Source: an uncultured Acidobacteriota bacterium (GTDB taxonomy: Bacteria; Acidobacteriota; JAQAZP01). Taken from it: DNA of 64,000 bases. Each line of letters begins with the position of its first letter. Position 1 is the stretch's first letter. Under the pieces are notes generated by a model. It did no database searches. It saw only the letters and a list, made by a program, of their open reading frames with translations, and had not been told where the DNA came from. The DNA lies in assembly GCA_963836075.1 (NCBI GenBank), contig CAWIIB010000009.1:3392001-3456000 (forward strand), in the 5' to 3' direction. Below, one piece after another: positions 4,892 through 35,436 of the stretch. The translations under genes and the position numbers were made by a program.

Positions 4892-5719
4892 TCAGCCGTC
4901 CAGCAGCCCTTTCCCGGTGGCCCAGGCGGTGAAGCCGTCCTCCAGCTGTTCGAAGGAGTCGATGACGTAGAGCAGCGGCTGCATGTGCCAGACGTCGTAT
5001 TCCTGCTCGGCAATGACCTCGGGGACAAAGGGCTGTTTCTTCACCTGGTCGGTGAGGCTGTGTTGCACCTCGGCAAAGGAGGAGAGGATGCCGTTGCCGT
5101 AGATCCGCATCCCGTCAGCTGTGCCGATCAGGCCGAACTCCACGGTGAACCAGTAGATCCGCTCCAGCCGCCGGCGGTCATCGCCCCGGGCGGCCATGGC
5201 CGCCTGGCCCATCTTCTGATAGAAGTCGGCGAACACCGGGTTGGTGATCATCGGCATATGGCCGAATACGTCGTGGAACATGTCCGGGGCCGGGGTGTAG
5301 TCCAGTTCCTTCCGTGAGCGGATATAGTCGGTGGAAGGGAAGACGCGGTCGGCCAGCTGGGAGAAAAACTCCTCCTCGTGGAGCAGGCCGGGGGTCCGGG
5401 AGACCCGCCAGTTCACCGCCTTTTCCAGGCTGCGGCTGGAGTCGGCGAGGCTGGGAATGCGGTCATCGGGGAAGGCCATGATTTTCAGGCCGTCCATATA
5501 CTCCTGGCAGCCACGCCCCACCAGCAGTTCCTGCTGCCGGGCGAAAAGGGTCTTCCAGATGTCGTGTTCGTCGTCTGTATAATCGGGGTACGGGATCTGG
5601 TCGCCAACCGGAGGCGGCCCGTCCAGTTTTACCGGGATACAGCGTGGGTCGAGAGCGTCGTCGGACGCCTTGTCGAATGCCGAGCGCAGTTCGCCCGTTT
5701 CTTCTGTCTTGTTTTTCAT
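4892..5719 (-). CDS. phhA: Phenylalanine 4-monooxygenase
   Basis: YTPAPDMFHDVFGHMP Fe-binding motif, YWFTVEFGL and IYGNGILSS. Confidence 0.95.
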   Translation of the reverse strand: MKNKTEETGELRSAFDKASDDALDPRCIPVKLDGPPPVGDQIPYPDYTDDEHDIWKTLFARQQELLVGRGCQEYMDGLKIMAFPDDRIPSLADSSRSLEKAVNWRVSRTPGLLHEEEFFSQLADRVFPSTDYIRSRKELDYTPAPDMFHDVFGHMPMITNPVFADFYQKMGQAAMAARGDDRRRLERIYWFTVEFGLIGTADGMRIYGNGILSSFAEVQHSLTDQVKKQPFVPEVIAEQEYDVWHMQPLLYVIDSFEQLEDGFTAWATGKGLLDG

Positions 5720-5729
5720 TTGATCCTCC

Positions 5730-6350
5730 TCAGGGTCCTTCGGGACGTCCCAGCTCGAACATGCTGCCGGCGGTGACGTGGGTGTAGTAGTCGGCCCCGC
5801 AGCGGCCCACCTGGTCGAGCTTCACCGGGTCGGGCATGCCGTCGGTGAGCACGGCGTCGTCAACGTGAATGTGGACGATCTCGCCGATGATGTAACTGGA
5901 GGCCAGCGCCCCCTGGCCATGCTCCACCACCTGGAAGAGACGGCACTCCATGGCCACCGGGCTTTCCTCCACCCGTGGCGCGGCAACCACCCGGCTGGTG
6001 GCCCGGTGCAGACCGGCCTGGTCGAACTCGTCCACTCCACGGGCGTAGGTCCAGGATGACTGGTTGACCTTTTCCGCCATGGGCCGGGTGACGACGTTGA
6101 TCACGTATTCCTTTGTCTCGCGGATATTGAGCAGGGAGTCCTTCGCTTTGCCGTGACGGTCGTTCAGGGGGCAGAAGACCGCTGAAGGCGGATTGGCCCC
6201 GCCAAGGCTGAAGAAACTGAAGGGGGCGAGATTTCCCAGGCCGTTGCTGTCCAGCGAACTGACCAGGGCGATGGGCCGCGGGGCCACCAGCCGGTTGAGC
6301 AGCAGGTAACGGTCGCGGATCTCGAGGTCTTTCATCGGGTATTCGGTCAT
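5730..6350 (-). CDS. Flavin reductase-like FMN-binding protein
   Basis: VAPRPIALVSS...NLAPFSFF...KDSLLNI...EYVINVV...PRVEESPVAMEC signature. Confidence 0.9.
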   Translation of the reverse strand: MTEYPMKDLEIRDRYLLLNRLVAPRPIALVSSLDSNGLGNLAPFSFFSLGGANPPSAVFCPLNDRHGKAKDSLLNIRETKEYVINVVTRPMAEKVNQSSWTYARGVDEFDQAGLHRATSRVVAAPRVEESPVAMECRLFQVVEHGQGALASSYIIGEIVHIHVDDAVLTDGMPDPVKLDQVGRCGADYYTHVTAGSMFELGRPEGP

Positions 6351-6353
6351 CGC

Positions 6354-7508
6354 TCACTCCGCCCAGGACTTGTAGTAGTCCCGGTCCTCGATCTCCAGCG
6401 CCGCCTTGGCCACCTGGAGCGGCTTGAAGGTGTCCACCATCAGGGCCAGTTCCTCGGTTCTTTTTTTGCCCATGCTCCCTTCGTAGCGGCCGGGGTGCGG
6501 GCCGTGGGGCATGCCGTCGGGATGCAGGGTGATCGAGCCGTGCTCGATGCCCTTGCGGCTCATGAAGTTCTTGCTCAGGTAGTAGAGCACCTCGTCGGTC
6601 ATCACGTTGGAGTGGGCGTAGGGCGCCGGGATCGACTCGGGGTGGAAGTCATAGGGCCGCGGGACAAAGGCGCAGACCACGAAACCGTCACCCTGGAAGG
6701 TCTGGTGCACCGGCGGCGGCTGGTGGATCATCCCCACGATCGGTTCGAAGTCGTGGATGTTGAAGGCCCAGGGGTAGTAGTACCCGTCCCAGCCGACCAC
6801 GTCGAAGGGGTGGTGGTCGAGCAGTGACTCGGTGAGGCCGCCGCGCTGCTTGACCACCATCCGGAACTCGCCCGTCTCGTCATGGGTCTGCAGCTCTTCC
6901 GGCCGGCGGATGTCCCGCTCGCTGAACGGCGCCCCCTCCACCAGTTGGCCATACTCGTTGCGGTACCGCGCGGGGGTGCGGACGTAGCCGCGGCTCTCGG
7001 TGATGAAAAAGGTCTGCGGGACGTCATCAAGCTTGAAGCGGTGCAGAATGCCGCGGTGGATCAACAGGTGGTCGCCCTCGCGGTAGGGCAGGTCGCCGAA
7101 CTGGGACTGCAGGACGCCGCTGCCCTCGGTGACGTAGACGATTTCGTCGGCCAGGCCGTTGCGGTAGAAGTGCTCGTCCTGGCGGTCCGGGCTGACGTGC
7201 TGCAGGGCCACGTCGCTGTTGAAGAGCAGCGCGGTGCGGTCCAGGGTGGGGCTGCCGCCGCGCGGGAGGCGGCCGCTGCGGAAGTGGCGCAGCCGCAGGG
7301 CCGGGTCGGGGTCGGCTTCCCAGACCACCGGGCCCAGGTGGCGCACCGCGATCACCGAGGTGGGCGGGCGGAGATGGTAGAGCAGCGAGGCCGGGCCGGT
7401 GAAGCCCTTGTTGCCCATCAGCTGTTCCTGGTGGATTCCGCCGTCCGCCTTGCGGAGTGCGGTGTGCCGCTTGGGCGGCAGCATGCCCAGCCGGTGATAC
7501 CACGGCAT
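6354..7508 (-). CDS. hmgA: Homogentisate 1,2-dioxygenase
   Basis: Start MPWYHRLG at 7508. Motifs PPKRHT, GFTGPASLLYH, HPFDVVGWDG, HQPPPVHQTF, PYAHSN and TLHPDGMPHGPHPG. Confidence 0.95.
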   Translation of the reverse strand: MPWYHRLGMLPPKRHTALRKADGGIHQEQLMGNKGFTGPASLLYHLRPPTSVIAVRHLGPVVWEADPDPALRLRHFRSGRLPRGGSPTLDRTALLFNSDVALQHVSPDRQDEHFYRNGLADEIVYVTEGSGVLQSQFGDLPYREGDHLLIHRGILHRFKLDDVPQTFFITESRGYVRTPARYRNEYGQLVEGAPFSERDIRRPEELQTHDETGEFRMVVKQRGGLTESLLDHHPFDVVGWDGYYYPWAFNIHDFEPIVGMIHQPPPVHQTFQGDGFVVCAFVPRPYDFHPESIPAPYAHSNVMTDEVLYYLSKNFMSRKGIEHGSITLHPDGMPHGPHPGRYEGSMGKKRTEELALMVDTFKPLQVAKAALEIEDRDYYKSWAE

Positions 7509-7510
7509 GG

Positions 7511-8477
7511 TCAGTTCTCCTCTGCAGATGGTGCCACGATGCTGTTGGTCAGGGTGCCCAGAAGGTCGATCTCCAGTTCCACCACGTCCCCCGCGGTGAG
7601 CCAGCCGTCCACCGTGTCCGGGCCCAGCTCGAGGATGCAACCGGTGCCCACGGTGCCGCTGCCGATGACGTCACCCGGATAGAGGGTGACATTGCTGCTG
7701 GCCCGTTCGATCATCTCGCCGAAGGAGTAGTGGATGTCCTTCCAGTTGCCGCGGGAATAGACCCGGCCGTTGACCCGGGCGGTCATGCCCAGGTCGAACC
7801 CCTTGCCCGAACGGAACGGTTCCAGCTCGTCCGGGGTGACCAGCAGCGGGCCGATGCTGGTGGCAAAGTCCTTGCCCTTGGCCGGGCCCAGTCCCACCTT
7901 CATCTCCTCGCGCTGGGCGTCGCGCAGCGACCAGTCGTTCATCACCATGTAGCCGGTGATGTGGCGCTCCGCCTCGCTGGCCCGGATGTCGCGGCCCGGT
8001 GTGCCGATCACCGCGGCCACCTCCAGCTCGTAGTCCAGCCACTGGCCGCCGGCGGGGAAGGGCAGTGGATCGCCGTGGCCCAGCATCGCCGTGTGGTTGC
8101 TGAAGTAGAAGACAGGGAAGTGGTACCACTCGGGGATCATCTCCAGGCCCCTGCGGCCGCGAGCCGTCTTGACGTGGGCCTCGAAGGCGTAGAAGTCGCG
8201 CAGGCTGGCCGCGGGAAGCACCGGCGGCAGAAAGCGGAGGCCGCCGGGGTCGAGGGCCGAGTCGGCCCGGAACAGTTGCGGGCCCGACATTGCGCATCCG
8301 GGTGGTGAACCCCTCCAGCAGCGGCAGCGCGGCCGGGTCGATGGGACCGGAGAGCCGGGTGGCTCCCTCGTGATCCGGGCCTGCCGGCATGGTGGCCAGG
8401 GGATAGACAAGGCCTTCGTGCATCACTCCGGCCCGCGCGCCCCCTCCGTCCAGCTTTTCGTAGTTGCAGTATCTCAT
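7511..8477 (-). CDS. Fumarylacetoacetate hydrolase family protein (apparent 1-nt frameshift near 8284)
   Basis: N-terminus MRYCNYEKL...GVMHEGLVYPL is in one frame. The catalytic part RDFYAFEAHV, LDYELEVAAVIG, MNDWSLRD, KGKDFATSIGP, GDVIGSGT is in another. It lies between hppD and hmgA. Confidence 0.85.
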
Positions 8478-8479
8478 GA

Positions 8480-9568
8480 TCAGAGGGTACCCCGCAGGGC
8501 CTGCTCCCGCTCGATGGACTCGAACAGGGCCTTGAAGTTGCCCTTGCCGAAACCCCGCGCGCCGCGGCGCTGGAGGATCTCGTAGAACAGCGTGGGCCGG
8601 TCCTCCACCGGGGTGGTGAAGATCTGCAGCAGGTAGCCTTGGTCGTCGCGGTCCACCAGGATGCCCAGTTCCCGCAGGTCGTCGATGTTTTCCTCGATTT
8701 CTCCCACCCGCTGGGGAAGCGTTTCGTAGTACTCATCCGGAACATGGAGGAAATCCACGCCGTTTTCCCGCAACTGGCGCACGGTGGCGACCACGTCCCG
8801 GGTGTGCAGAGCCAGGTGCTGGATACCGGGACCGTTGTAGAAATCGATGTATTCCTGGATCTGGCTCACCTTGCGCCCCATGGCCGGTTCGTTGATCGGG
8901 AACTTGATCGTCATGTCTTTGCTGGCCATCACCACGCTCTGCAGGGCGGTGAATTCGGTGGAGATGTCCTTGTCGTCGAAGGAGATGTAGCGGTGGAAGC
9001 CGAGCACCTTTTCGTAGTAGTCGGCCCAGTGGTTCATGCGGTCCAGTTCAACGTTGCCCACGATGTGGTCGATAAAGTGCAGTCCGGTGGATGGCTGTTC
9101 GATCAGGCTCTCCTCATACCCGGGCAGAAATGGCCCCTGGTAATCCATGAGGGTGAGGAAGGAATGAATGGTGTCGCCGTAAGTCCGGATGGCAGCGCGA
9201 CGTACCGTGCCCCGTTCGTCGGTTATGTCGAAAGGCTCGCTATGCGGGATCGCTCCCCGGCTGACCGCTTCCGCGTACGCCGCATCGACGTCCTGCACCT
9301 CAAAGGCGATGTCACAGGCGCCGTCGCCGTGCTTGCTCAGATGTTTGGCGATCCAACTGCCCGAGCCGTAGGGGGTGGTGAGCACCAGTCGGGCCTTCCC
9401 CTGCTCCAGAACATATGAGGCCTCCTTGCGGTTACCTGTTTCCAGGCCGCTGTAAGCGGTGCGGGTGAACCCGAAAGCACGGCGGTAAAAGAATGCCGCC
9501 TGCTTGGCGTTGCCCACCAGATACGCCACGTGGTGGATCCGTTTCAGGCCCAGGTCATTGTTGGACAT
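8480..9568 (-). CDS. hppD: 4-hydroxyphenylpyruvate dioxygenase
   Basis: Start MSNNDLG at 9568. Motifs [47 protein letters not shown] and [15 protein letters not shown]. Confidence 0.96.
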
Positions 9569-9608
9569 GACATGCTCTCCATTGGGATGGGACAGGGCCG
9601 GCGGCCCG

Positions 9609-9951
9609 CTACAGGGCGTCGATCTTGGCCGCCACGATGAAGTCGTTCTCGCTGAGGCCGCCGATGGCGTGGGTGAACAGTTCGAGGTCCACCGTGTTCC
9701 ACGATATGGCGATGTTGGGGTGGTGCCCCTCCTCCTCGGCCACGTCGGCGACCTTGTTGACAAAAGCCATGGCCTCGACAAAGTCCCTGAACTGGTAGTT
9801 GCGGGTCAGCCGGTGCACCCCTTCCCGGCTGAGGGCCCACTCCGGGATCAGCGGGGTGAACCCGTCCTCCTGGCTGTCGGTGAGTACCCGGCACACCGCC
9901 TTCGCAGGGGACGCACTTCTTGTCGATCAAACAATTGCTCTTTTCGTTCAT
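9609..9951 (-). CDS. phhB: Pterin-4-alpha-carbinolamine dehydratase (apparent 1-nt frameshift near 9888)
   Basis: [21 protein letters not shown] is in one frame and continues in another as VLTD...[18 protein letters not shown]...[19 protein letters not shown]. Confidence 0.9.
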
Positions 9952-10317: not shown

Positions 10318-11558
10318 TCACTGTCCGGTGACCGTGCAACTGTCGGTCGCCTCCGGGCCGCCAGCCACATCCATCGCGGTCAGCAGTCCGGTGGTGTCAC
10401 CCACCAGGCCGGGCCAGGGCCCCATGTAGTAGCTCCAACAGTTGTAGTAGGTCTCGCCGCCGCCAAGAGTAACGTTCCCGCTGCGCCAGCCGTTGATCAC
10501 TCCGCCGCCCGCCAGGGTCACGTCGATCTCCCCGTGGAAAGTGCGTGAATCCATGGTCAGATTTTCCAGACCCGCGCAGATCTCCACTGTGAACGGCAAT
10601 ACGCCGCTGTCCGGCAGGCAGGTGAGCATTGCCGCCACGGTGGGCGGTTCCCCCCCCCGCTGTAGAGTTCGATGAACCGGCCTGAGGTGCCGGGGTTTTC
10701 GTTCTCGATCAGCGCCCCGGTGGTGGCATCCATCTCCCAGACACCGTCACCGGCGGTGCAGAGGATGTTCCCGTTGCCCAGCCGGTAGACACCGCGGCCG
10801 CCGTTGAAGAAGAACTGGGTGTGCAGCGTCCCGTCCAGGTCGAAATCGGTGATCCAGTCGGCGCTGAAGGACGCGTTCAGGTAGTCGCCCGGAGCAACGC
10901 TGTCGACCTGGACCTGCTCCGGGAAGTTGACGGCGAAGATCTCGCCGACCAGCGCACCCGCCGCGTCGTAGAGCCTCACGTTGTCGGTGGTGCCCTGGAT
11001 GTCGGTCAGCAGTGAGCTGCCATCGTCGAGGAACAGGATGTCGAAGGGATCTGAGCCGTCGGCGATGAAGTCGGCAAGACGGCTGTGCGGGCCGTCGAAC
11101 TCGGCCACGTAATCGTCCCCGCTGGTGACGAAGAGGTGACCGTCGCGGAAATCAATTCCCCTGATGTTGTTCAGCCCGTCAGTGGCGTCGGCATAGGTCA
11201 GGAGGTGGTTGCCGGCCGTGTCGAAGACATTGACCGAATCGTTGAGCTGGTCCGAAACATAGATGTTGCCGTCCGGCCCCTGCACCGCATTGATCGGGGT
11301 GGAGAACCCGGTGAACCCGGAGATGATGTCCCCCATGTACGTCCCATCGAACGGGTCGTATATACCAACAACGTCATTGGTGGAATCGGGGATCATCAGG
11401 AATTCAGTGGGCAGGCCGTCCATAGCGATCTGTTGTCCGGACTTGGTTGCACTGGTGGGCTCCAGTCCCTGCTCCTCGAGGAAATCATCCCCGGCCATCA
11501 CGGCTGGAACTAACATCAGACAGCAGACGGCGATGAGAAAAGTCACTCCATGCCTCAT
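10318..11558 (-). CDS. Secreted NHL/SMP-30-like beta-propeller protein with conserved C-terminal domain (frameshift in G9 run at 10650-10658)
   Basis: RBS GGGAGG and signal peptide MRHGVTFLIAVCCLMLVPAVMA. Propeller-like repeats (GPDGNIYVSDQ, IRGIDFRDGHLFVTS). Adding one G at the run joins ...SGGG-EPPTVAAMLTC... to ORF 10318..10638. Confidence 0.75.
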
Positions 11559-11692
11559 CTGGCACCTCCCTGGCCTCGCGGGCCAAAACTGGGTTGAAAA
11601 GAAAGGGTAGTGGATAACGCAGCCTGTGTGCAGGCGTTCTGTGGTTAATATACGTCTTGTTGCCCGATAAGGCAATGAAAATAATTAATGTC

Positions 11693-12643
11693 TCAAGCGG
11701 AGATGTCGGGTGGGGCCTGCTGCTGTGGGTTGAGGCCGCGGCTGACCGCTTCGGCCTCGATGAAGACACGCTTGACGCGGGGGTGGGCTTTCTTGATCCG
11801 CCGGTCCAGGCCGGCGATGGCCTGCTCCACCTCACCCGCGGTGGCGCTGTCGCGGAAATCGACATTGATATTGACCAGGATGAACTCCGGCCCCACGTGC
11901 ATGGTCAGCACCTCGCTGACCTGTTCGATAAGCGGGTTTTCCCGGGCGAGACTGCGGATGTTTTCCACCACCTCGGGTCGGGCGCTCTCACCGATCAACA
12001 GGCTTTTTGTCTCCCAGGCCAGCCAGGCCGCGGTGGCGCCGAGGATCAGGCCGATGACCACCGAGGCCGCCCCGTCCCAGCGGTAGTCGCCGGTGAGCTG
12101 GGCGGCGAGGATGCCGGCAAAGGCCGCCACCAACCCGAGCATCGCCGCCGAGTCCTCGAAGAGCACCACGAAGATCGAAGGGTCCTTGCCGCGGTGCACC
12201 GCCTCGATGATCCCCCGCTCGCCCCGTTGCCGCTCGAACTCCCGGAAGGCGAAGATCCAGGCCGCGCCCTCGAAGATCATCGAGAGGCCGAGGACGATGT
12301 AGTTGATCATCGGGTTGGCCACGACCTTGGGGTGCCGGATGTGGTGCACGCCCTCGTAGAGCGACACTCCGGCGCCCACGGCAAAGATCAGGATGGCCAC
12401 CACGAAGCTCCAGAAGTAGATCTCCTTGCCGTAGCCGAAGGGGAACTGCGGATTCGGAGAGCGTTTGCTGCGGCGCAGGCCGTAGAGCAGCAGCACCTGG
12501 TTGCCGGTGTCCACCAGTGAGTGAATGCCCTCGGAGAGCATGGCCGAGCTGTGGGTGATGGTGGCGGCGCCGAACTTGGTGATGGCGATGAGGCTGTTGC
12601 CGACCAGTGCGGCGTAGATCACTTTTTTGGACGATGAGGCCAT
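11693..12643 (-). CDS. Cation diffusion facilitator family transporter
   Basis: Motifs SSAMLSEGIHSLVDTGNQ, FPFGYGKE, VLFEDSAA and LLIGESA, with about 6 TM helices and a C-terminal dimerisation domain. Confidence 0.92.
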   Translation of the reverse strand: MASSSKKVIYAALVGNSLIAITKFGAATITHSSAMLSEGIHSLVDTGNQVLLLYGLRRSKRSPNPQFPFGYGKEIYFWSFVVAILIFAVGAGVSLYEGVHHIRHPKVVANPMINYIVLGLSMIFEGAAWIFAFREFERQRGERGIIEAVHRGKDPSIFVVLFEDSAAMLGLVAAFAGILAAQLTGDYRWDGAASVVIGLILGATAAWLAWETKSLLIGESARPEVVENIRSLARENPLIEQVSEVLTMHVGPEFILVNINVDFRDSATAGEVEQAIAGLDRRIKKAHPRVKRVFIEAEAVSRGLNPQQQAPPDISA

Positions 12644-12722
12644 GGATTTTCCAGCTCTCCCCTGTTCTGCGGTTTGGTCAATAATGCCACGAAACCGCCC
12701 GGCGGCCAACCCGGTTTCCGGG

Positions 12723-13976
12723 TCACCGTCTACGCTTTGTCTTTCGTGGCTTTGCCGGAACAGCGTCCAGGGTCAGCCGGTTGCGGCCTCGCCGCTTGGC
12801 CCGCAGCAGCGCCTGGTCGGCGGCTTTGACCACCTCCTGGGCGGTGTGGTGCTCCTCCCGCCGCTGGGCGGCGCCGATACTGATCCGCACCCGCACGTTC
12901 TTCTTCTTTCCCCGCGGGGGCCGCGGCCGCACCGGCGGTTTCCGCGGGCGGCCCCGGCCGCGGACGGTGAAGGCGGCGCCGGCCACCTTGCGGCGCAGGT
13001 GTTCGAGGTGCGGGGCCGTCTCTTCCAGATCTTTGCCGGGAAAGAGCAGGGTGAACTCTTCACCGCCATAGCGGAAGGCCCTGCCCCCGCCGCCCACCGC
13101 GGCCAGGCTGCCCGCCACCATGCGCAGCACCTGGTCACCCACGTGGTGGCCGTGACGATCGTTGAATTTCTTGAAGTGGTCGATATCCACCATCGCTGCG
13201 GTAAAGCGGCCGCCGATCTGGTTCAGGGCTTCATTGAGCGCCCGTCGTGTCGGCAGGCCGGTCAGTTCATCACGAAAGGCCATGGAATAGGAGGTGTTGA
13301 CCACGGCCACCACCAGAATCAGGCCGGCGGCGGAGAAGAGCAGGGTGGCCGGCGAACCGCTCTGCGCTGTCAGGGCGAAGCAGGCGGTGAGCAGCGACCA
13401 GAACAGACCGGCGCTCAGCGGTCCGGGACGGCTCACCGCCCGGCCGGCCAGCAGCAGCACCGCCAGGGCGGCTGCCACCAGGGCGAGGTGCGGGACACCG
13501 CCGGTGTCCGGGGGAAACCCGGGAATGGAGACCTGGAGGAAGCGGACCGATTGATGCAGTGTGCGGTGGATGACCAGGGCCACCAGGGCCGGCTGCACCA
13601 GCACCGCCGCCAGGCGCCACACGCCGCGGGCGGTGAAGAACCCCCGCTCGTTGAGCAGCGAAATCACGAGGAAGTTCAGCGGCAGCAGGATGGCCACTGC
13701 GCTGAAGACGAACGGCCCGGCACCTGGATCGCCGGCGGCGTCAGGACCGTAGCGCCGCAGCGATTCCTCAGCCAGGGCGAGCACCAGCAGGGACAGCACC
13801 GGGCGGAGACGGTTGAACCGCCAGCCGAGGAGCAGTCCTGCGCCCAGCACAACCAGGGGAAGCACCTCGGCAGCGGCGGTGAGCAGCTGGGGCAGGGGGC
13901 GTTGGGCCAGGATCAGTGCCGCGCCAAAAATCAAACCGCCGGGAAGTATGGCGGAGAGAAATGCCCGTGGACGCAC
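12723..13976 (-). CDS. Membrane-bound diguanylate cyclase (GGDEF)
   Basis: Multi-TM N-terminus, then RDELTGLPTRR, DIDHFKKFND.HGH.VGD, RYGGEEF and ADQALLRAK..GRN. No RxxD I-site. Confidence 0.92.
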   Translation of the reverse strand: MRPRAFLSAILPGGLIFGAALILAQRPLPQLLTAAAEVLPLVVLGAGLLLGWRFNRLRPVLSLLVLALAEESLRRYGPDAAGDPGAGPFVFSAVAILLPLNFLVISLLNERGFFTARGVWRLAAVLVQPALVALVIHRTLHQSVRFLQVSIPGFPPDTGGVPHLALVAAALAVLLLAGRAVSRPGPLSAGLFWSLLTACFALTAQSGSPATLLFSAAGLILVVAVVNTSYSMAFRDELTGLPTRRALNEALNQIGGRFTAAMVDIDHFKKFNDRHGHHVGDQVLRMVAGSLAAVGGGGRAFRYGGEEFTLLFPGKDLEETAPHLEHLRRKVAGAAFTVRGRGRPRKPPVRPRPPRGKKKNVRVRISIGAAQRREEHHTAQEVVKAADQALLRAKRRGRNRLTLDAVPAKPRKTKRRR

Positions 13977-13981
13977 CCGGC

Positions 13982-15577
13982 CTACCTCCCGTCGCCGGTT
14001 GGCGGTTCTCCGGCAAGCCGGAGGTCGAAGAGGTGGCAGCCATGGGCCGGCAGGTCGAGGTACAGGCCGCGGACCACCAGGTCATCACCCTCGCGGCTGT
14101 AGGACGCCTGACCCAGCAAGTCGTCGAAGTGCCAGGTCATCCCGCCCAGGCCGGGGAGGTTCAGCGGCAGGAAGCACTGGGCCGGTTCACCGGAAAGATT
14201 GGCCACCACCACCCGGCGGTGGCCGCGAAAGACCCAGCGGTGGGCGATGATGTTGCGGAAGGAGGGATTGCCGAACCACTCCTCCTGGGGCTCCAGCGGG
14301 GCCCACTGGCCGAGGTGAAACACCGGGTGACGCAGGGCCTGGATCAGGCGGTGGTAGAAACCGGCCAGTTCGGCATCGGGCGGTTCCGACGGGCGGCGGC
14401 CCAGCTGTACCGGCACCTGCAGCCGGTTGCCCTCCAGTTGACCGTCGTGGAACAGCCGCATGCCGGGCAGGGTCATACCCACCACCGCGGCGGGCCGCAG
14501 CCGCTCACAGCCGAAGGCGGTAACTGCCCGTTCCTCGTCGTGATTCTCGATAAAACGGGTCAGGCGGTTCTGGAACTCCACCGCTCTGGTGAGCCGCTGC
14601 CGGGTGGCCCGGGGGTCGCCCCCCACCAGCAGGTCGTAGAGCCGTTTGTCATAGGTGTAGTCGAAACCCTGCTGCTGCAATTCACCTTCCATGTCCCAGT
14701 AGACCTCGCCGATGGTCAGGAATTCCGGGTGCAGTTTCTTGACCCTGGCGATGGCCCGCGGCCAGAACTGCGCTTCCGGCGGTTCGAAGTGGCCGCCCCA
14801 GGTACGGAGGAAGATGCTGCGCGTGGGCAGCATGGCCATGTCGCAGCGCACCCCGTCACAGCGGCCGGCGATCTCCATCAGGCAGCGCTCCATGGCCTCC
14901 CGGGTCTCGGACCGGCGGTAGTCCAGCTGCACCGTGTCGGTCCAGCCGGGGAAGTTCGGGTCGCGGCCGTGGGCGAACACCCGTTCCCGTCCGTTGTCCC
15001 GGTGCAGGAAGTAGTTGTCCGGTGCCTTGAGCAACTGGTCCCGGTCGCCCTGCATCAGCCGCTGGGGCTGCTCATCGATCCAGCTGTGATCAGCCGCCAG
15101 GTGGTTGGGGACGAAGTCGAGGATCAACCGGATGCCGAGCCGGGCCAGTTGCCGGCGCAGTGCCTGCAGTTCGCCGTCGCCGCCCAGGGCCGTGTCGGTG
15201 CGGTAGTCGGCCACCGCATAGGGCGACCCCACCACATCCTGGTCATGGTAGTCGGGAAGCAGCTCGGCGAACCGGGCTTTCAACTGGGGGTGGCTGCGGG
15301 CGCGCCGCCGGCTCCAGCGGCTGCGCTGCCAGACGCCCATCAGCCAGACGCCATCAAAGCCGTACCCGGCGATGCGGTCCAGCTCCTGCTGCGGCACCGT
15401 GCCCAGGGTCACCGGCTGCCCGTGCGTGCGGCTCAGGTCGCGGAGCCAGGTCCAGGTGTTGATCTCGTACACCGCCGGGTGGGCCGGCCAGGGCCCGGCG
15501 GGAGCGGTGCCCGCCGCCTCCACTTTGCGCAGCAGGCGTCCCAGCTGTTTTGTTGTCGCTGTATCACGGTGGGTCAC
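13982..15577 (-). CDS. GH13 alpha-amylase family glycoside hydrolase
   Basis: Motifs YEINT, GSPYAVADY, LDFVPNH, and catalytic GVRCDMAM, IGEVYW, FIENHDE. Start uncertain (GTG at 15577; ORF open to 15667). Confidence 0.9.
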   Translation of the reverse strand: MTHRDTATTKQLGRLLRKVEAAGTAPAGPWPAHPAVYEINTWTWLRDLSRTHGQPVTLGTVPQQELDRIAGYGFDGVWLMGVWQRSRWSRRRARSHPQLKARFAELLPDYHDQDVVGSPYAVADYRTDTALGGDGELQALRRQLARLGIRLILDFVPNHLAADHSWIDEQPQRLMQGDRDQLLKAPDNYFLHRDNGRERVFAHGRDPNFPGWTDTVQLDYRRSETREAMERCLMEIAGRCDGVRCDMAMLPTRSIFLRTWGGHFEPPEAQFWPRAIARVKKLHPEFLTIGEVYWDMEGELQQQGFDYTYDKRLYDLLVGGDPRATRQRLTRAVEFQNRLTRFIENHDEERAVTAFGCERLRPAAVVGMTLPGMRLFHDGQLEGNRLQVPVQLGRRPSEPPDAELAGFYHRLIQALRHPVFHLGQWAPLEPQEEWFGNPSFRNIIAHRWVFRGHRRVVVANLSGEPAQCFLPLNLPGLGGMTWHFDDLLGQASYSREGDDLVVRGLYLDLPAHGCHLFDLRLAGEPPTGDGR

Positions 15578-15682
15578 GGTGCCTGGTCCCCGAGCCGAAA
15601 GCAGCGGCCTCCATGGCCGCCGGCGGTTCCTGGCCGAAGAGTATACACGATTCCGCCACCCGGACACAGGACACGGGGGCTC

Positions 15683-18600
15683 TCACGGCGCTTGAGGCGA
15701 ATGCGGGAGAGGTTTCAAACCGGTCACGGTGCACCTGTCGGTATCGGTATCACCGGAAGGTGGATACGGGGGGTGGTTGTACGGGGCGGGTGTGACGTCT
15801 TCCACGACCAATGTGAATATATTGGTGCCCACCACCGGAGCCAGATCGGGGATCGTCTGCTGCCAGGCCGTGGAGTAGGTGGACCCGGCAGAGAGGTTGG
15901 TATACCCCGATCGCCAATTGGGGTAGAACGAGCCGTTGCCCAACTGCACGCTGATCCGGGCAGCTGCGCGGCGGGATTGACCAAGATACCGATTGGTCAA
16001 ATAGACCGTATGTGTCGTGGTGAAGGGGATGGTGCCGCTGAGCGGCGCAATGGTGTAGATGCAGTTCGTCGTGACAGTATCGAGGTTGAAGAAGTATGCC
16101 GATCCCGCTTCATCCCCCCCCTCATGGTCATCCCTGGGCGCTCCCACAATCGCCGTGTTGCCGTCGATGCCCAGTGCTGTACCGAAGCCATCGTCCGCCG
16201 CCGCGTCGGACGCACTCAGTTTGGCCTGCTGGAACCAGGTCCCGCGTTGAAGTGAAAACACGTATGTCGAACCGGAGTTCACGCCGCCGGCATGATCGTC
16301 GCCCGCTGCCCCGATCAGGGCAGTGCCGTCCTGAATCGATACCGAGTAGCCGAAGTTGTCTTCCTCCGCCGGATCCCATGCGGTCAGTTTGATCTGCTCG
16401 GTCCAGGTTTCTCCAGAGCGCACGAACACGTATGCCGACCCGGCATCGGAAAAGCCGCCGTGGTCGTCGCTGCTGGCGCCGATCACGGCCATGTCGCCAC
16501 GAAGGGCCACCGCGAAGCCGAACCGGTCATCCTCGGCGGCGTCCGAGGCGGTCAGTTTGGCTTGTTCGGTCCAGACGCCGTCCGCACGGGTAAATACATA
16601 TGCCGAGCCCGCATACGCCATTCCTTCCCGGTCTTCCTTGTATGCTCCGACCAGCGCCGTATCGCCATCGATGGCGACGGAGTAACCAAAGAAGTCGTCC
16701 GGCCCCGCGTCCGAGGCGGTCAGTTTAGCTTGCCTGGTCCACTTGTCCCCGGAGCGAGTAAAGACAAAGACCGATCCGGATTCGGTCAGATCATAGTAGT
16801 CATCCCCGCATGCCCCGATCACGATGGTGTCGTCATCGATGGCCACTGAGCAACCGAAAAAGTCGTCATACTGTCCCTGGAAATCGGACAGTTTCGATTT
16901 TTCGGTCCAGACGCCATCGGAGCGACCGAAGACGAATGCCGAGCCCACCTTTTCTTCGCCCGAGACCATGCCCCAGCAGGCTCCGACTACTGCCGTGTCG
17001 CCCTGGAGGTCAACGGCGCAGCCGAAGAGTTCGAATGAGGTCGCACCCGAAGCGGTCAGTTTGGCCTCTTCCGTCCAGGATTCACCGGCGTCCTTGAAGA
17101 TGTACGCCGACCCCGCTCGTATGCGACCCGCATGATCGTCATCCACGGACCCGACAATGGCCAGACCATTGTCGATGGCCACCGAGTAGCCGAACCGGTC
17201 TCCCGCGGCACTGTCCGACGCGGTAATCTTATACAACTCCGTATCACCGTAGTCACAGGCATCACCTGCACCGTCTCCGTCCTCGTCGGCCTGGTCGGGG
17301 TTGTTCACCGTCGGGCAGTTGTCCATATCCCCGCAAAGGCCGTCCCCATCGACGTCGTTCTCAGGATCATCCGGGCATGTATCGCAGGCATCGCCGATAC
17401 CATCTTCGTCGGCATCTTCCTGGTTCGGATTGGAAATGCCGGGACAGTTGTCACAGGCATCCCCCACATCGTCATCGTCCACGTCTGACTGGTCCGGATT
17501 GAACTCGTCAGGACAGTTGTCCACATCGGCACAGAAACCGTCGGCATCGACGTCGTCCCCCGGATCATCCGGGCAATCGTCACACGCATCCCCGATCCCG
17601 TCGCTGTCCGCATCCTCCTGGTTCGGGTTGGGCAACGCGGGACAGTTATCGCAGGTATCACCCAACTCGTCTTCATCGGTGTCCGCCTGGCCGGGGTTAT
17701 GGTCAAACGGACAGTTGTCGAATTCGTCCAGGACACCGTCCCCGTCATCATCGGGATTGCACCCCAGATCGAAAATGTAGACTGAGCCGGCGTCTAACAG
17801 GTCGGAGTGGTTGTCACCCTCTGCTCCGATCAGTGCAAGGTCGCCATCCAGGGCGGCTGCTCGTCCGAAGTAATCGCCCAACGCCGTATCGGAGGCAACC
17901 AGGATATGCTGCTCGGACCAGTTCTGGCCGGAACGGCAATAGATATACGCCGAACCGGAATAGATGCCGCTGCCATTGTCCTTATGTGCGGCCCCGATCA
18001 GCGCCACATTGTCCTCAAGGGCAAGTGAGGAACCGAAACGATCCTCCTCCGCACTATCCGATGCGGTGAGTTTGGCTTGTTCGGACCACCCCCTGGCTGA
18101 TTGGAAGAAGACATACGCCGAGCCGGCATTGGTGCCGCCGGCGTGGTCATCGAGAGTGGCCCCGATCAATGCGGTATCGGCGTGGAGAGCGATGCGGCCG
18201 CCAAAAGCGTCACCGGCCGACGCGTCCGAGGCGGTCAACATGGACTGCTCGGTCCACTCGTCGCCGCTGCGGGTGAAGACGTAGGCTGCGCCTGCCCCCA
18301 CATGACCCTGGTGGTCCCTCCCCGAAGCGCTGATCACCATCGTCTCTTCATCGAGAGCAATCGCGTGGCCAAAGTGATCACCGGGCAGGCCATCGGACGC
18401 GATCAGCTTCGTCTGCTCTATCCAGTCTTCGCCTGTACGGACGAAAACATAGGCCGAGCCTGCATCGTTTTCGTTTGGCAGATCGTCTCCGGATGCCCCG
18501 ACGACGATCATCTCTCCCTCAATCGCTACTGAGCCGCCAAAATAATCACCAGCCGATGCATCGGAAGCGGTCAGTTTGGCTTGCTCTGTCCAAACCCCGT

Positions 18601-19021
18601 TCGTACGGACAAAGACATAGGCCGCGCCGGCATCGCTCTCGCCCGAGTGGTTGTTCCCCGAGGCCCCGATCACCACAGTGTCGCCGTCAATGGCCACCGA
18701 ACTGCTGAAGTAGTCAGACGCCCACGCGTCGGAAGCGGTCAGTTTGGCCTGCTGGGTCCAATCACCGACTGCACGAACAAAGATGCAGGCCGAGCCGCTG
18801 TGATCAGCTCCGTCAGCCCCGACAATTGCCGTGTTGCCGTCAACGGCAACCGAGCGGCCAAAGTTGTCGTTTGCCATGGCATCCGCGGCGATTAATCCCG
18901 TCAATTCCTCCGGATTACATTGCGCAGATACGGGCACTCCAGTCCACGGGGTCAAGAGCCACAAACTCGAACAGGTGAACAGTGCGACCGCCCGGAAAAA
19001 CCGCTTGTCCATCAATGTCAT
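15683..19021 (-). CDS. Large secreted protein: two 7-repeat FG-GAP beta-propellers, thrombospondin type 3 repeats and a conserved C-terminal domain
   Basis: RBS GGGAG, signal peptide [23 protein letters not shown]..., 7 + 7 repeats of KLTASD...D.FG.SVAIDGD...GA...GSAYVF, and a central DNCP..NP.Q.D.D.DG.GDACD array. Confidence 0.9.
17250..17755 (-). repeat. Thrombospondin type 3 (Ca-binding) repeat array within CDS
   Basis: Repeated DNCP...[17 protein letters not shown] units. Confidence 0.85.
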
Positions 19022-19190
19022 CGTTTGACTCCCGCGTTCTGGACTGGTGAATGTATCTCTAGCGTCAGTAAAAATGGGTATTGTCCATGAAAATGGCTGT
19101 GCAGCTGTCGGTTGCCACCAGAAAAACAAACATGTTCTTTTTACAACGTGGTTCTTTTATTCAAGGAAGTCAAGTGGCGTCCGGCTGGGA

Positions 19191-20049
19191 TTATTCAGGA
19201 AGGATCCCCAGCGCGACAAAGATCTTCCGGGTCAACTCCACCCGGGGGCCCCAGATTTCCTGGTAGCTGTCCGCTTCGAGGTTCAGCGCGAAGGTGAAGG
19301 TCCGCTCACCCCGTTCCACCCAGCCCACCAGCCAGCCGATGCGCCGGCCGTTGTCCAGTTCCCCGCCGCCGGTCTTGCCGCGAAAGACGTAGCCGTCGCC
19401 TTTCTCCCGCTCGATGATCCCTTCCACGATGGCCGTGGACCGTTCGGAATAGCCCATCCGCCGGTCTTTCAGCCGCCGCAGGAATTCCACCTGTTCGGCG
19501 GCGGCGATCTGCAGGGTGGAGGAGAGCCAGAACTGGTCGATGCCGCCGGAGATGTCCTGGTTGCCGTAGTTGATCCGCCCCAGGTGCTTTTTCATCCGCT
19601 CGGTCCTGATGCGGCGGGCCACTTCCTGGAAATACCAGACCACCGAGTTGGTCATCGCCGAGCGCAGGTCGTGATCCCGGGGCCACTCACCGAGGATCGG
19701 TCCGCTCCACCAGTCCTGTTTGGGGTCCTGCTCCGGGTCCCAGGGAATCACGTGATCAGCGTCGGCCAGCACGCCCAGTTCCAGGGCGATGAGGCTGTTG
19801 GGGATCTTGAAGGTGGAACAGGGGGGGAAGCGGGTGGCCCCGCGCAGGGGGTTGTGGCGCAGATAGACGCCGCCGGCCGAATCGTGGATCACGATGCAGC
19901 CCTCGTATCCCTCGAACAGCTGGTCAACGATGATCTGTGCTTCCCGGCTGCTGAAGTCCAGCGGCTCCGGCTCGGCGGATGAACACGGGCAGCCACGCTG
20001 CGCTGAGCAGACAGAGCACGATTCCGGCAACCGGGTTACGGTTCTTCAT
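19191..20049 (-). CDS. Class D beta-lactamase (OXA/YbxI/BlaR-like) with signal peptide; apparent frameshift near 19988
   Basis: Motifs PCSTFK (SxxK), SVVW (SxV), YGN and KTG. Signal peptide MKNRNPVAGIVLCLLSAAWLP starts at ATG 20049, after an RBS, in an adjacent frame. Confidence 0.85.
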
Positions 20050-20066
20050 TCTCTTCCCCCGTGGCA

Positions 20067-21299
20067 TCAGCGCGGATCCACGACCCGGCCCATGAAGAGG
20101 ATTTCGTTGTCCGGCCCCATGATCATGTAGATGAACGGGTGGTCGGCCCGGAACAGTTCGGGCGGCATCGGCATTGAAGTGGTGGCGATCATGCCGGCGG
20201 TGGCCGCCGCGGCCTCGGTGCCCTCCTCGTTGACCTCCACGAAGGCCTGGTGGATCACCGCCGAGAGGAAAAGCCTCTTTTGCGGGTCCATGCCCGAGAA
20301 GTCGGCGCTCGGTTTGAACGCCTCCTTCATCCCCAGGGCGGCCAGCGCCTGGTTCAGCTGGAACTTTGTCTCCACCCGGAAGCGGGGCAGCAGCAGGTCC
20401 ACTTCCTGCCGGCGCATGTTGGCCAGCCAGTCATTCAACAGATCGACCTCCAGACGGCGTTCCAGGGCCGGGAGCCCTCCGGCCTTTTCGGGGAGCAGGA
20501 CCACCATGGAGAGCCCGCCCTTGCCGTAGGACATCCGCAGCAGCTGCAGCCCGTCGGCTTTCCCGTACTGGAAATACTCCTTGATCCGCATCAGCGGCAC
20601 GTCCACCTCGGAACCGGAGGCCAGAGTGAAGGGCAGGTCGCTGGTCCGTTTCTCGTCGAAAGGTTCCTTCCATCGGCCCTTGAAGTAGATGGCATTGGTC
20701 AGCACCAGCCGGGTGTTGCTGTTCAGCACCCCCGGCTGGATCAGATCCTTGATCCGGTCCTCGGTCTGTTCCTCCACCCAGCGGTTGATGGTCTGGCGGG
20801 ACTGCTCGGTGGCCCCGACAAAGTCGAGGGGCCGCAGTTCGGCCTCATAGTTGGCCTGCACCGTGTCGATGAACGGCCTGGCGAACTCGAAGCCCTGCTG
20901 GGGCCAGAGGGCGTTGGCTGTTCGCAGCTTGACCCCGCTCTCCTCGCGGGCCCGTTCCAGGTTTGCCACCAGCTCGGCAAACGCCGGGTGGAGCTGTTGC
21001 TGACCGAGGGTGAAGCCCAGTGCCCGGGCCATCTCTTTTTCCGTGTCCCCCCGGGCTCCGGCCCAGGTCATGGCCAGGGCGGTGGAGATGCTGTGCGGAG
21101 AGAAGAAGATGTTCCCCTCTTCCTGACCCAGCTGGCGGTACAGCCTCAAGGCAAAGTCGGTGTTGTCGCGGGCCAGTTGCATTGCGGCTCCCTCCATCGG
21201 GCCGGCGCTTCCGGCAACCGGCCGGGGTGTGCAACAGAGCCCCAGGCAGGCCATCAGGGCCGTCATCAGTACCATCGTGCTTTTTCTGGTCATGATCAT
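20067..21299 (-). CDS. Serpin (serine protease inhibitor), secreted or lipoprotein
   Basis: Motifs NIFFSPHSIS.ALAM, INRWVEEQTEDRIKDL, LVLTNAIYFKGRW, hinge EVNEEGTEAAAAT and FRADHPF...ILFMGRV. Confidence 0.96.
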   Translation of the reverse strand: MIMTRKSTMVLMTALMACLGLCCTPRPVAGSAGPMEGAAMQLARDNTDFALRLYRQLGQEEGNIFFSPHSISTALAMTWAGARGDTEKEMARALGFTLGQQQLHPAFAELVANLERAREESGVKLRTANALWPQQGFEFARPFIDTVQANYEAELRPLDFVGATEQSRQTINRWVEEQTEDRIKDLIQPGVLNSNTRLVLTNAIYFKGRWKEPFDEKRTSDLPFTLASGSEVDVPLMRIKEYFQYGKADGLQLLRMSYGKGGLSMVVLLPEKAGGLPALERRLEVDLLNDWLANMRRQEVDLLLPRFRVETKFQLNQALAALGMKEAFKPSADFSGMDPQKRLFLSAVIHQAFVEVNEEGTEAAAATAGMIATTSMPMPPELFRADHPFIYMIMGPDNEILFMGRVVDPR

Positions 21300-24802: not shown

Positions 24803-25870
24803 CTATACGTTGAAACGGATGCTCAGGATGTCGCCATCCTGAACCGGATACGTTTTTCCTTCCAGGCGGAAGCGGCCCTTTTCCCTGACCACCTTTTCCG
24901 AGCCGCTCTCCATCAGGTCGTCATAGGAGAAGCACTCGGCGCGGATAAAGCCGCGGGCCAGGTCGCTGTGGATCACCGCGGCGGCCTCCAGGGCCGTTTG
25001 CCCGCGGATGATGTTCCAGGCCCGCACTTCATCCTCACCGACGGTGAAGAAACTGATATTGCCCACCGTCTCGTAGGCCAGCCGGGTCAGCCGGGCCCGG
25101 GCCGACTCGCTGATCCCCAGGTCCTCCATGAAGGCCGCAGCCTCCTCCTGGTCCATGCGGGCCAGTTCCATCTCGAAGTTGCCGGCGAATTCGATCACCG
25201 TGTGGTGCTCCCGGAGGTGCTCCACCAGGCTGTTGTTCTTGCCGTAGGTCTCCTCGTCGGCGTTGAGGATCACGATCAGCGGCTTTTGCGAGAGGAACTG
25301 GAACCCGCGCACCGCCCGCGCCTCTTCGGCGGTCATTTCCATCCGGCGCAGGGGCAGGCCGCCCTCCAACTGCTCCATCATCCGCCGCAGCACCTGCTCC
25401 TCGACCTTGGCCTCGTTGTCCTGCAGGCCCCGCTTCTTGCCCCACGCGATCCGCTCCAGCCGCTTCTCGGCCACGATCATGTCGGAGATGATCAGCTCGT
25501 CCTCGATCTCGGCCACGTCCTGCACCGGGGTTGGCGGGTCTTCCAGTGCGTCGACGAACCGGCGGACCACCAGGGCCAGAGCGTCGGCGTTGCGCACCAT
25601 GGTCATGGCCTCTCCGGAGAAGAGGCCCTCCCGGGCCGAGCCCTCGCTGAGACCGGCGAAGTCCACCAGCTCCACCGTGGCCCGGACGGTCTTCTTTGGC
25701 TTGTAGAGGGCGCTCAACCGCTCCACCCGGCCGTCCTCCACGTCCACCATTGCCAGGTTCGGTTCGCCCCTGGTGTTGGCGAAGCTGGTCACTTCGGCCT
25801 CGGAACGGGAAAGGGCGTTGAAGATGGTGGTCTTGCCGGAGTTCGGCAGACCGATCAGTCCGATTTTCAT
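24803..25870 (-). CDS. ychF: YchF/Ola1-family Obg-like ATPase (divergent)
   Basis: Motifs MKIGLIGLPNSGKTT, VDFAGL, FFTVGEDEVRAW, IHSDLARGFIRAE and RLEGKTY.VQDGD. Confidence 0.85.
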   Translation of the reverse strand: MKIGLIGLPNSGKTTIFNALSRSEAEVTSFANTRGEPNLAMVDVEDGRVERLSALYKPKKTVRATVELVDFAGLSEGSAREGLFSGEAMTMVRNADALALVVRRFVDALEDPPTPVQDVAEIEDELIISDMIVAEKRLERIAWGKKRGLQDNEAKVEEQVLRRMMEQLEGGLPLRRMEMTAEEARAVRGFQFLSQKPLIVILNADEETYGKNNSLVEHLREHHTVIEFAGNFEMELARMDQEEAAAFMEDLGISESARARLTRLAYETVGNISFFTVGEDEVRAWNIIRGQTALEAAAVIHSDLARGFIRAECFSYDDLMESGSEKVVREKGRFRLEGKTYPVQDGDILSIRFNV

Positions 25871-25989
25871 GTTGCGGTCTCGTCCAGATGGTCCGGACCA
25901 CGGGTGCAGTACAACGGCGGCCGAAGGCCGCCCGCCGCGGAGCCGGGACCGGGATGTTTTCGATTCAGGGAGCCTCGGTCTACCGGAGG

Positions 25990-27906: not shown

Positions 27907-28163
27907 TATCTATCTGGTCCTTCCTGGAGTACGTCGTCCGTTGTGTATGAAACACGTCCACTGCGGCCACTGCTCACCGTGCCGCCGTTCTGTTCCGCTG
28001 CCATTCAGGTTACCGTACAGCCGTTCGGCAACATGATGGCTTTTCTGGAGGGGGGGATTGACTTCCGGGGGTGGAACAGGCACCGAAAGCCTTTATTGTT
28101 GTTATTGTGCGGGAAAAGTAGCACAGCCACTGTATAACGTCAAGACGATTCCGGGCCATTGAG

Positions 28164-28206
28164 TGTCATCGCGAGGAGCAGGCGCAGCCTGCGACGTGGC
28201 GATCTC
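28164..28206. repeat. Short palindromic REP/RPE-like element
   Basis: TGTCATCGCGAGGAGCAGGCGCAGCCTGCGACGTGGCGATCTC resembles the widespread GTCATTGCGAGGAGC...GCGAC..GGCAATCTC intergenic repeat class (recognised from memory). It has an internal GCAGGC/GCCTGC stem. Confidence 0.55.
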
Positions 28207-28207
28207 C

Positions 28208-30811: not shown

Positions 30812-30838
30812 CTCCCCAACGTTTAGTTCATTTCCGAG

Positions 30839-34997: not shown

Positions 34998-35106
34998 TCG
35001 TACTCTCCTTGTGGGGGCTGACAATTCGAGGGCGTTCCTTCCACGACCGGATAGAAGCGTGGGGGCGCGCGGTTGTTGGGGGAAAGATTTTGGTGAGGTC
35101 CCGACC

Positions 35107-35147
35107 CCTGAGGCCTCAGGTGCAGGACGGACGGACGGACGGACGGA
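35107..35147. repeat. 14-bp palindrome followed by a (GGAC)5 microsatellite
   Basis: CCTGAGGCCTCAGG at 35107-35120 and GGAC x5 + GGA at 35125-35147. Confidence 0.8.
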
Positions 35148-35436
35148 TCTTATCTCTCCTTGATTCGGGTAAGAGGCGAGACTCGGCTGAGAACAAAGTT
35201 GTCATTAGCGTCATAATGAATATACAAGAAAGCATAGAAATGTGTGTTGTGGTTGTCAAGCGAATATTGAGGGTAACGGGGAAAATCTTTCGTTATGTGT
35301 CTGGGTTTTATTTTGAACCAGGAAGCGCTTAGTGCGTTTGATCCTGGCGAAGCGGGTGCATTTTTTTACCAGCTTGCATTTGGAATTGATCTGAGCGATT
35401 CTGTGGCGCATATATTCAAACCGGGGAGGGAGTTCA

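Follow-up and report, generated by a model that had tools for sequence, protein, structure and literature searches.

A predicted C-terminal beta-sandwich domain shared by unrelated secreted proteins of an uncultured Acidobacteriota bacterium: a candidate sorting or anchoring tag

Why should two secreted proteins with unrelated passengers share the same C-terminal domain of about 120 residues? The question is raised by a 64,000-nucleotide stretch of DNA from an uncultured Acidobacteriota bacterium (assembly GCA_963836075.1, contig CAWIIB010000009.1, positions 3,392,001–3,456,000), referred to below as the window. This stretch encodes an FG-GAP/TSP3 repeat protein with such a tail (tail 2) and, behind the gene of an NHL/ScyF-like beta-propeller, a second one (tail 1). 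C-terminal tags on secreted proteins are known as a kind; the present family appears to be new. The answer favoured here, with a probability of about 0.65, is that the domain is a lineage-specific C-terminal sorting or anchoring tag that would be read by a common partner in the cell envelope. The features of the window and of the related sequences are listed in Table 1.

The two tails are identical at 38 of 118 positions (32%) in a BLASTP comparison (E = 7e-14), the tails being taken from window positions 10321–10653 and 15686–16108, both on the minus strand; the shared tail is real and well beyond chance. A profile built from both tails, which they match by construction, scores tail 2 at 278 bits and tail 1 at 194 bits, and it finds no third copy among the 834 six-frame open reading frames (ORFs) of the window, where the next best match has E = 0.92. 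The initial annotation, made from the letters alone, had described a consensus common to both ends, Sec signal peptides on both proteins and passengers of unrelated kinds. The consensus is present as it was written; a crude hydrophobicity rule classes both N-termini, including that of the FG-GAP/TSP3 protein, as signal-peptide-like; and the passengers are, respectively, a protein with 14 FG-GAP_2 stretches (Pfam E = 1.5e-231) and five TSP_3 stretches (E = 3.7e-17) and an NHL/ScyF-like propeller. The claim that two secreted proteins of the window carry a common tail holds in part: the shared domain stands, but tail 1 is out of frame with the propeller, a frameshift that the initial annotation had missed.

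Tail 2 is 43–59% identical to members of the wider family described below, and tail 1 is 35% identical. In tail 2 the family's NQPPY is replaced by NHPPY, and its LKP is the counterpart of the usual last three residues. Family members normally stop right after ..TG[IVL]AP, and P0002, a homologue with 59% identity, terminates in ..VTVTGIKP, whereas tail 2 runs for another eight residues. The extension, LPHSPQAP, looks as if the normal stop had been lost. The tail of the FG-GAP/TSP3 protein is intact, with a small extension. Tail 1 lacks the 11-residue proline-rich loop of the main family and represents a short-loop subtype, which is also present in P0200–P0202, where it is in frame.

Translation of the three minus-strand frames places the propeller and tail 1 in different frames that overlap at a run of nine G residues (G9). 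The propeller frame reads ..FIELYSGGGNRPPW.. at this junction and continues beyond G9 for 33 codons to a wrong-frame stop at 10557–10559; the tail frame reads ..GEPPTVAAMLTCLPDSG.. at the same place. As the sequence stands, the propeller protein does not end in tail 1. G9 is the longest homopolymer in the window and its sole run of nine or more; about three such runs per window are expected from base composition (1.9 of G and 1.2 of C), and the 604 kb of related loci described below hold seven. The three closest propeller homologues (P0200–P0202; 78–80% identical, 413–416 residues) have the tail in frame; the junction in P0200 reads ..ELYSGGEPPTVAA.., with fewer Gly codons than in the window. 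One extra G or two fewer would join the frames. The break may be a mistake of assembly at the homopolymer; otherwise the gene would be truly inactivated, perhaps reversibly, and could be a pseudogene or subject to a slippage switch. Programmed frameshifting was set aside, because the closest homologues read the junction in frame. A frameshift placed right at the boundary of passenger and tag is also a warning that genes of this sort will be split by automated annotation.

How far the tail extends beyond the window was assessed at the level of proteins and of genomes. A search of longer proteins, seeded with words of tail 2, found 55 matches in 1073 candidates, 54 of them with E from 5.5e-24 to 8e-88; the remaining one, P0055, was set aside because it matched a repeat only in part (E = 9e-6, 22% coverage). 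In all 54 strong matches the domain ends 0–12 residues from the C-terminus, typically in ..CTVTG[IVL]AP. Tail 2 is the first row both of alignment A1, of 55 members, and of a tail-only alignment, A2, of 89 sequences with a mean column identity of 56%. The A2 profile, run against 1.84 billion cluster representatives, retrieved 504 at E ≤ 1e-3, 466 at E ≤ 1e-10 and 384 at E ≤ 1e-30; judging from this distribution, the tail family is small, tight and isolated.

The position of the domain is almost constant. Among 197 domain-bearing proteins it occupies the extreme C-terminus in 193, as a single copy in 185 and as a tandem terminal pair in eight; in the other four it is internal, with further domains behind it. 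Proline is the last residue in 84 of 88 full tails, and W55, R56, N61, W72, Y100, N101 and Q102 are near-invariant. Cysteines occur near either end of the domain as a co-varying pair: of 88 tails, 69 have both, 12 have none and seven have a single one, a pattern that fits a disulfide and an oxidising, extracytoplasmic location. Of 174 members beginning with methionine, 138 have a signal-peptide-like N-terminus by the crude hydrophobicity rule, compared with none of 120 YchF proteins taken as a cytoplasmic control, and many of the negative members are fragments or have mis-set starts.

For copy number, one genome per species (185,579 genomes) was scanned with the motif TP[AS]PYN[QL][PA]P[YF], which tail 2 of the window, with its NHPPY, would escape. 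The scan gave 108 stretches; the best 80 of them make up 70 loci with 604 kb of sequence, all in two metagenome-assembled genomes (MAGs), one of which is that of an Acidobacteriota bacterium. A hidden Markov model (HMM) found 93 domain matches in these loci, never two in one ORF; 87 lie 0–1 residues before the stop codon, five lie 2–16 residues before it and one is cut by the end of its locus. After removal of overlaps, at least 52 and at least 39 distinct copies are left in the two MAGs. Tail genes are often adjacent, with two or more in 22 of the 70 loci.

The cargo of the family is varied. Its passengers include subtilases (S8), M28 and M36-like peptidases, metallophosphatases, right-handed beta-helix proteins, a Porphyromonas-type peptidyl-arginine deiminase, and FG-GAP, BNR, BACON and MAM proteins. 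Some of the passenger families match NCBIfam models that are named as T9SS-dependent (type IX secretion system), rhombosortase-dependent, myxosortase-dependent or MYXO-CTERM proteins.

The propeller of the window allows the tail to be compared with the appendages of orthologous cargo. It has 404 homologues, of which the 120 listed are 51–80% identical. Among 119 listed homologues, NCBIfam models identify a T9SS type A sorting domain in 41, PEP_CTERM in three and IPTL_CTERM in two; Pfam identifies FlgD_ig in 32, Por_Secre_tail in 28, PKD in 12, PEP-CTERM in eight, Dockerin_1 in three and IPTL-CTERM in two. Sorting of the same 119 by motif gives 30 T9SS-A-like, 18 PEP-CTERM-like, 14 PKD-type, 10 FlgD-like, 10 dockerin-like and two IPTL ends, nine ends with another tail of about 130 residues, 23 other or fragmentary ends and three with the new tail. 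The source names are consistent with this sorting, as in the case of PEP-CTERM proteins from Planctomycetes and a T9SS type A protein from candidate division WOR-3. The appendage of the propeller varies by lineage, and the new tail therefore occupies the place of established sorting and docking tags on orthologous cargo. This passenger swap is the most telling evidence for a sorting tag.

The tail of about 130 residues on nine propeller homologues (..FTLDAG..LLGS.SGT.PG..SNAV.v.IVP) is a second C-terminal domain found in place of the tag. Pfam holds no match for it, and hhalign comparisons relate it neither to the new tail nor to T9SS tails; it is a further candidate for a tag.

At E ≤ 1, the two window tails are without a match in both Pfam (2025 copy) and NCBIfam 20.0. 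Among the 55 members of A1, no family is common to more than eight (Pfam) or nine (NCBIfam), and those matched are passenger families; the models TIGR04183, PF18962, PF13860 and CARDB (PF07705) are not among the 25 families listed per library, the rarest of which occur in two of the 55 members. A sequence profile search of the PDB gave a best match of E = 0.18, and the portions of text returned by a full-text literature search hold no description of the domain. By these comparisons, the tail family is a distinct family named in no library searched.

AlphaFold2, supplied with the family alignment, predicts a beta-sandwich for both tails, with eight strands in tail 2 (predicted local distance difference test, pLDDT, 96.8; predicted template modelling score, pTM, 0.86) and the same strand order in tail 1 (pLDDT 97.2, pTM 0.87). 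In the models, the loop between the last two strands is ordered and 16 residues long in tail 2 and short in tail 1. There is no helix in either model and so no transmembrane helix; the highest 19-residue Kyte–Doolittle mean per tail (n = 89) has a median of 1.09 and a maximum of 1.89, reached by one tail. The initial annotation had guessed at a beta-sandwich without a transmembrane helix, belonging to no named family, and had expected many paralogues, a C-terminal position, signal peptides and diverse passengers. The wider family agrees with it on each of these points, which lends support to its proposal of a lineage-specific export or surface tag, as a probable interpretation.

According to the favoured reading, the tail would be a disulfide-stapled beta-sandwich that closes Sec-exported proteins of many different, unrelated types. 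It would be recognised by a common cell-envelope partner, which would bring the cargo to the cell surface or hold it there. The tail would thus be analogous in function, but not homologous, to the T9SS C-terminal domain, PEP-CTERM or a dockerin. Such a partner would be a dedicated translocon, peptidase or receptor; a T9SS-like translocon, a processing enzyme, a cohesin-like scaffold and an envelope glycan are the options considered. The invariant surface loop and the free C-terminus would be the putative recognition elements.

Several observations weigh against this proposal. No candidate translocon or peptidase was found among the neighbours of the tail genes in the 70 loci, the annotation of the window contains no secretion machinery, and no processing site is evident in the tail. 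Foldseek comparisons with the PDB yield only generic Ig/FnIII/MG-like sandwiches. The four internal and eight double copies among the 197 proteins indicate that the domain can fold and persist when its C-terminus is not free. A site for binding a ligand would be equally compatible with the conserved Trp, Tyr, Asn, Arg and Asp positions. The 80 best stretches were chosen by the domain itself, and the copy numbers drawn from them are lower bounds for two genomes only; for the genome of the window itself, only at least three tail copies are inferred.

The alternative that survives best, itself rather unlikely, is an ordinary binding or adhesion module of the CBM-, CARDB- or FnIII-like sort, spread by domain shuffling, which would bind a substrate, a matrix polysaccharide or cells and have no sorting role. 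Such a function is suggested by the fold matches, which include the FnIII domains of the biofilm matrix protein RbmA of Vibrio cholerae (template modelling score, TM, 0.80–0.81; root-mean-square deviation 2.2–2.9), protein 4.2 and factor XIII barrels, complement MG domains and, at rank 48, CARDB (3idu, TM 0.69). The near-invariant aromatic and polar residues could form a ligand site, and internal or tandem copies (12 of 197) are in keeping with a shuffled module. The likeness to CARDB/FnIII-like E-set domains (RbmA, CARDB of PF1109) is at the fold level only, with 13–17% sequence identity, and the CARDB model of Pfam is unmatched by the window tails at E ≤ 1 and missing from the families listed for A1. 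CARDB-like leads from the ESM Atlas, all below 0.9, were not borne out by Pfam. Domains of the CARDB/FnIII-like sort are not known to be tied to the extreme C-terminus. It would be unusual for binding modules to be restricted to the final residues of their carriers, with proline conserved as the very last one, and they are seldom found in exactly one copy on peptidases, phosphatases, deiminases and propellers alike; moreover, the same passenger bears true sorting tags elsewhere. A tag is preferred to a binding module because of the extreme C-terminal position, the terminal proline, the single copy per protein, the conservation across passengers and the passenger swap.

A highly divergent C-terminal domain of the T9SS, which would mean that the lineage has this secretion system and uses the tail as its cargo signal, is a less probable explanation still. 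The resemblance to the T9SS domains (TIGR04183/PF18962 and the FlgD_ig type) is one of architecture: in both cases, signal-peptide-bearing, Sec-exported proteins with unrelated passengers end in a terminal beta-sandwich, there are dozens of paralogues per genome, and the domain has the same place on orthologous propellers, 41 of 119 of which have T9SS type A tails. Furthermore, no classical T9SS tail accompanies the new one: HMMs of T9SS tails gave no credible match in the 604 kb and the window (a single one with E = 0.0017, in a 65-residue ORF), with controls at 42 and 41 of 120. There is, however, no homology at the level of sequence or profile. The models TIGR04183, PF18962 and PF13860 match neither window tail at E ≤ 1, and hhalign gives A2 a probability of 1.7% against 28 T9SS type A tails and 0.9% against eight FlgD-type tails, whereas the positive control, type A against FlgD-type, reached 99.5% (E = 2.3e-22). 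T9SS C-terminal domains are not among the best 50 Foldseek matches in the PDB for either model, in a fold class where Ig-like sandwiches all resemble each other. The new tail is also longer, is far more conserved between paralogues than T9SS tails are, and possesses a cysteine pair, a terminal proline and, in the main family, an invariant proline-rich loop. No T9SS component was found among the flanking genes of the tail loci or in the window; a GldK-like match in the flanks proved to be an FGE-type domain fused to a kinase.

Another explanation would make the tail an intramolecular chaperone or C-terminal propeptide, comparable to the bacterial pre-peptidase C-terminal domain, that aids folding or latency and is removed after export. 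This would accord with a terminal, folded domain on several peptidases (S8, M28, M36-like), but is very improbable: most passengers are not peptidases (beta-helix, FG-GAP, propeller, metallophosphatase, BNR); no family occurs in more than eight of the 55 members, so that a match to the pre-peptidase domain is not common; and conservation this high on such different passengers suggests an external partner shared by all of them rather than a role in the folding of each.

A sorting or anchoring tag is thus the preferred interpretation, and it can be set beside other systems of its kind. The short sorting signals PEP-CTERM, IPTL-CTERM, MYXO-CTERM, GlyGly-CTERM and LPXTG are likewise lineage-restricted C-terminal tags on many paralogous secreted proteins, and PEP-CTERM and IPTL-CTERM stand in for the new tail on the same propeller in other lineages. 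These signals consist of a motif, a transmembrane helix and a basic tail, about 20–35 residues in all, whereas the new tail folds as a soluble domain of about 120 residues, is free of helices in the models and lacks a basic end, finishing in ..CTVTG.AP. PEP-CTERM-like ends are absent from the 604 kb of loci and from the window. Within that sequence the new tail is the dominant tag, in a sample biased by the choice of loci by the tail.

Dockerins (PF00404) are small helical calcium-binding repeats. Like the new tail, they are usually C-terminal, single-copy modules on diverse secreted enzymes, and they dock onto a common partner; they also occur on some of the propeller homologues, as noted above. 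The new tail differs from them in being all-beta in the models and in having no Pfam match, and no cohesin-like scaffold came to light, none having been sought. An earlier example is the Solibacter domain TIGR03437, likewise a folded, lineage-specific domain at the C-terminus, which occurs on many paralogous secreted proteins of an acidobacterium. No NCBIfam model matched the window tails at E ≤ 1, so that, by this test, the tail and TIGR03437 belong to different families.

The range of the tail family among lineages is narrow. The YchF protein of the window is 84–90% identical to eight clusters and at most 64% identical to anything else listed, the latter relatives being named from Desulfobacterota-type bacteria, Acidobacteriota, KSB1, Zhuqueibacterota and Chitinispirillaceae. 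Because identity drops in this way, the organism of the window is placed, on the evidence of this protein, in a deep, sparsely sampled lineage; we infer, as a suggestion, that the tail family tracks this deep-branching uncultured lineage. A more specific proposal can be put forward tentatively: the tail could be the cargo signal of an undescribed sorting or secretion system with its own outer-membrane translocon and/or processing enzyme, confined to this lineage and doing there the job of the T9SS or of exosortases, with the invariant loop and the terminal proline as its possible recognition elements.

Table 1. Positions of the tails, their carrier genes and other features in the window and in related sequences.
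Feature	Position	Strand	Evidence or remark
Tail 1, short-loop subtype, PPTVAAMLTCLPDSG ... TDSCTVTGQ	10321..10649	-	Frames, AlphaFold2; ORF 10318..10638, in a frame different from the propeller upstream; stop codon 10318-10320
G9 homopolymer (C9 on + strand) at propeller/tail junction, frame break	10650..10658	-	Sequence
NHL/ScyF-like beta-propeller passenger ORF, signal-peptide-like start MRHGVTFLIAVCCLMLVPAVMAG	10557..11558	-	ORF, NCBIfam ScyF NHL E = 2.4e-5; full extent 10557..11675, likely start 11558; propeller part 10659-11558
FG-GAP_2/TSP type 3 repeat protein gene, 1112 aa (P0001), carries tail 2	15683..19021	-	ORF and Pfam; ORF spans 15683..19129, likely start 19021
Tail 2, C-terminal beta-sandwich domain of FG-GAP/TSP3 protein, ends DRCTVTG	15719..16078	-	BLASTP against tail 1, AlphaFold2
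End of tail-2 protein: LKP, then 8-residue extension LPHSPQAP (15686-15709), stop codon	15683..15718	-	Family comparison
Proteins ending in a tandem pair of tails: P0056-P0062, P0162			Rare architecture
Proteins with an internal tail: P0063, P0071, P0085, P0137			Rare architecture
Carriers of the alternative tail of about 130 residues: P0203, P0223, P0243, P0281, P0283, P0285, P0310-P0312			
Large FG-GAP proteins adjoining tail genes, without the tail	L004:305-2626, L024:7132-9351, L027:3-1997, L039:5207-6376, L042:8852-10354		
Large FG-GAP proteins adjoining tail genes, without the tail (continued)	L047:402-3176 and 5249-8146, L049:3976-7215		
Aromatic amino-acid catabolism cluster	4892..9896	-	
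Bacterial serpin with adjoining small transpeptidase-domain protein	19191..21299	-	Serpin, Pfam E = 1.8e-121
YchF	24806..25993		
Low-GC stretch	28000..36000		
FG-GAP protein, 867 aa	28208..30811		

The tail genes in the MAG loci are flanked by unrelated genes with housekeeping functions or by genes for other secreted proteins; the recurrent neighbours are sulfatases, radical-SAM enzymes, ABC ATPases, RNA-binding proteins and other secreted FG-GAP proteins. Large FG-GAP proteins that adjoin tail genes there are themselves without the tail and have a conserved end of their own, ..VKV[FY].YDG....W.SL.A.......G..VAAG[RK]F-COOH; the 867-residue FG-GAP protein of the window has an end related to this group. 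The latter protein lies, together with a 317-residue ORF and a 1109-residue ORF without a Pfam match, in a stretch of low G+C content (0.50–0.59, compared with about 0.65 elsewhere) that may be an acquired island.

Two other groups of genes in the window are of a different nature. Directly upstream of the FG-GAP/TSP3 gene is a pair formed by a bacterial serpin, with a start resembling that of a signal peptide or a lipoprotein, and an adjoining small transpeptidase-domain protein. The aromatic amino-acid catabolism cluster comprises a biopterin-dependent hydroxylase, a flavin reductase, a homogentisate-dioxygenase-like protein, fumarylacetoacetase, a 4-hydroxyphenylpyruvate-dioxygenase-like protein and pterin-4a-carbinolamine dehydratase.

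More than once, C-terminal sorting tags have been the starting point from which envelope machinery was found, as with sortases, exosortases, rhombosortase and the T9SS. The tail family, unnamed, well conserved, present in dozens of copies per genome and situated where sorting tags are situated, offers a handle for the search for its partner. The A2 profile can serve in phylogenetic profiling, in assigning hypothetical proteins of about 500 clusters to the secreted or surface cargo and in defining the exoproteome of the lineage.

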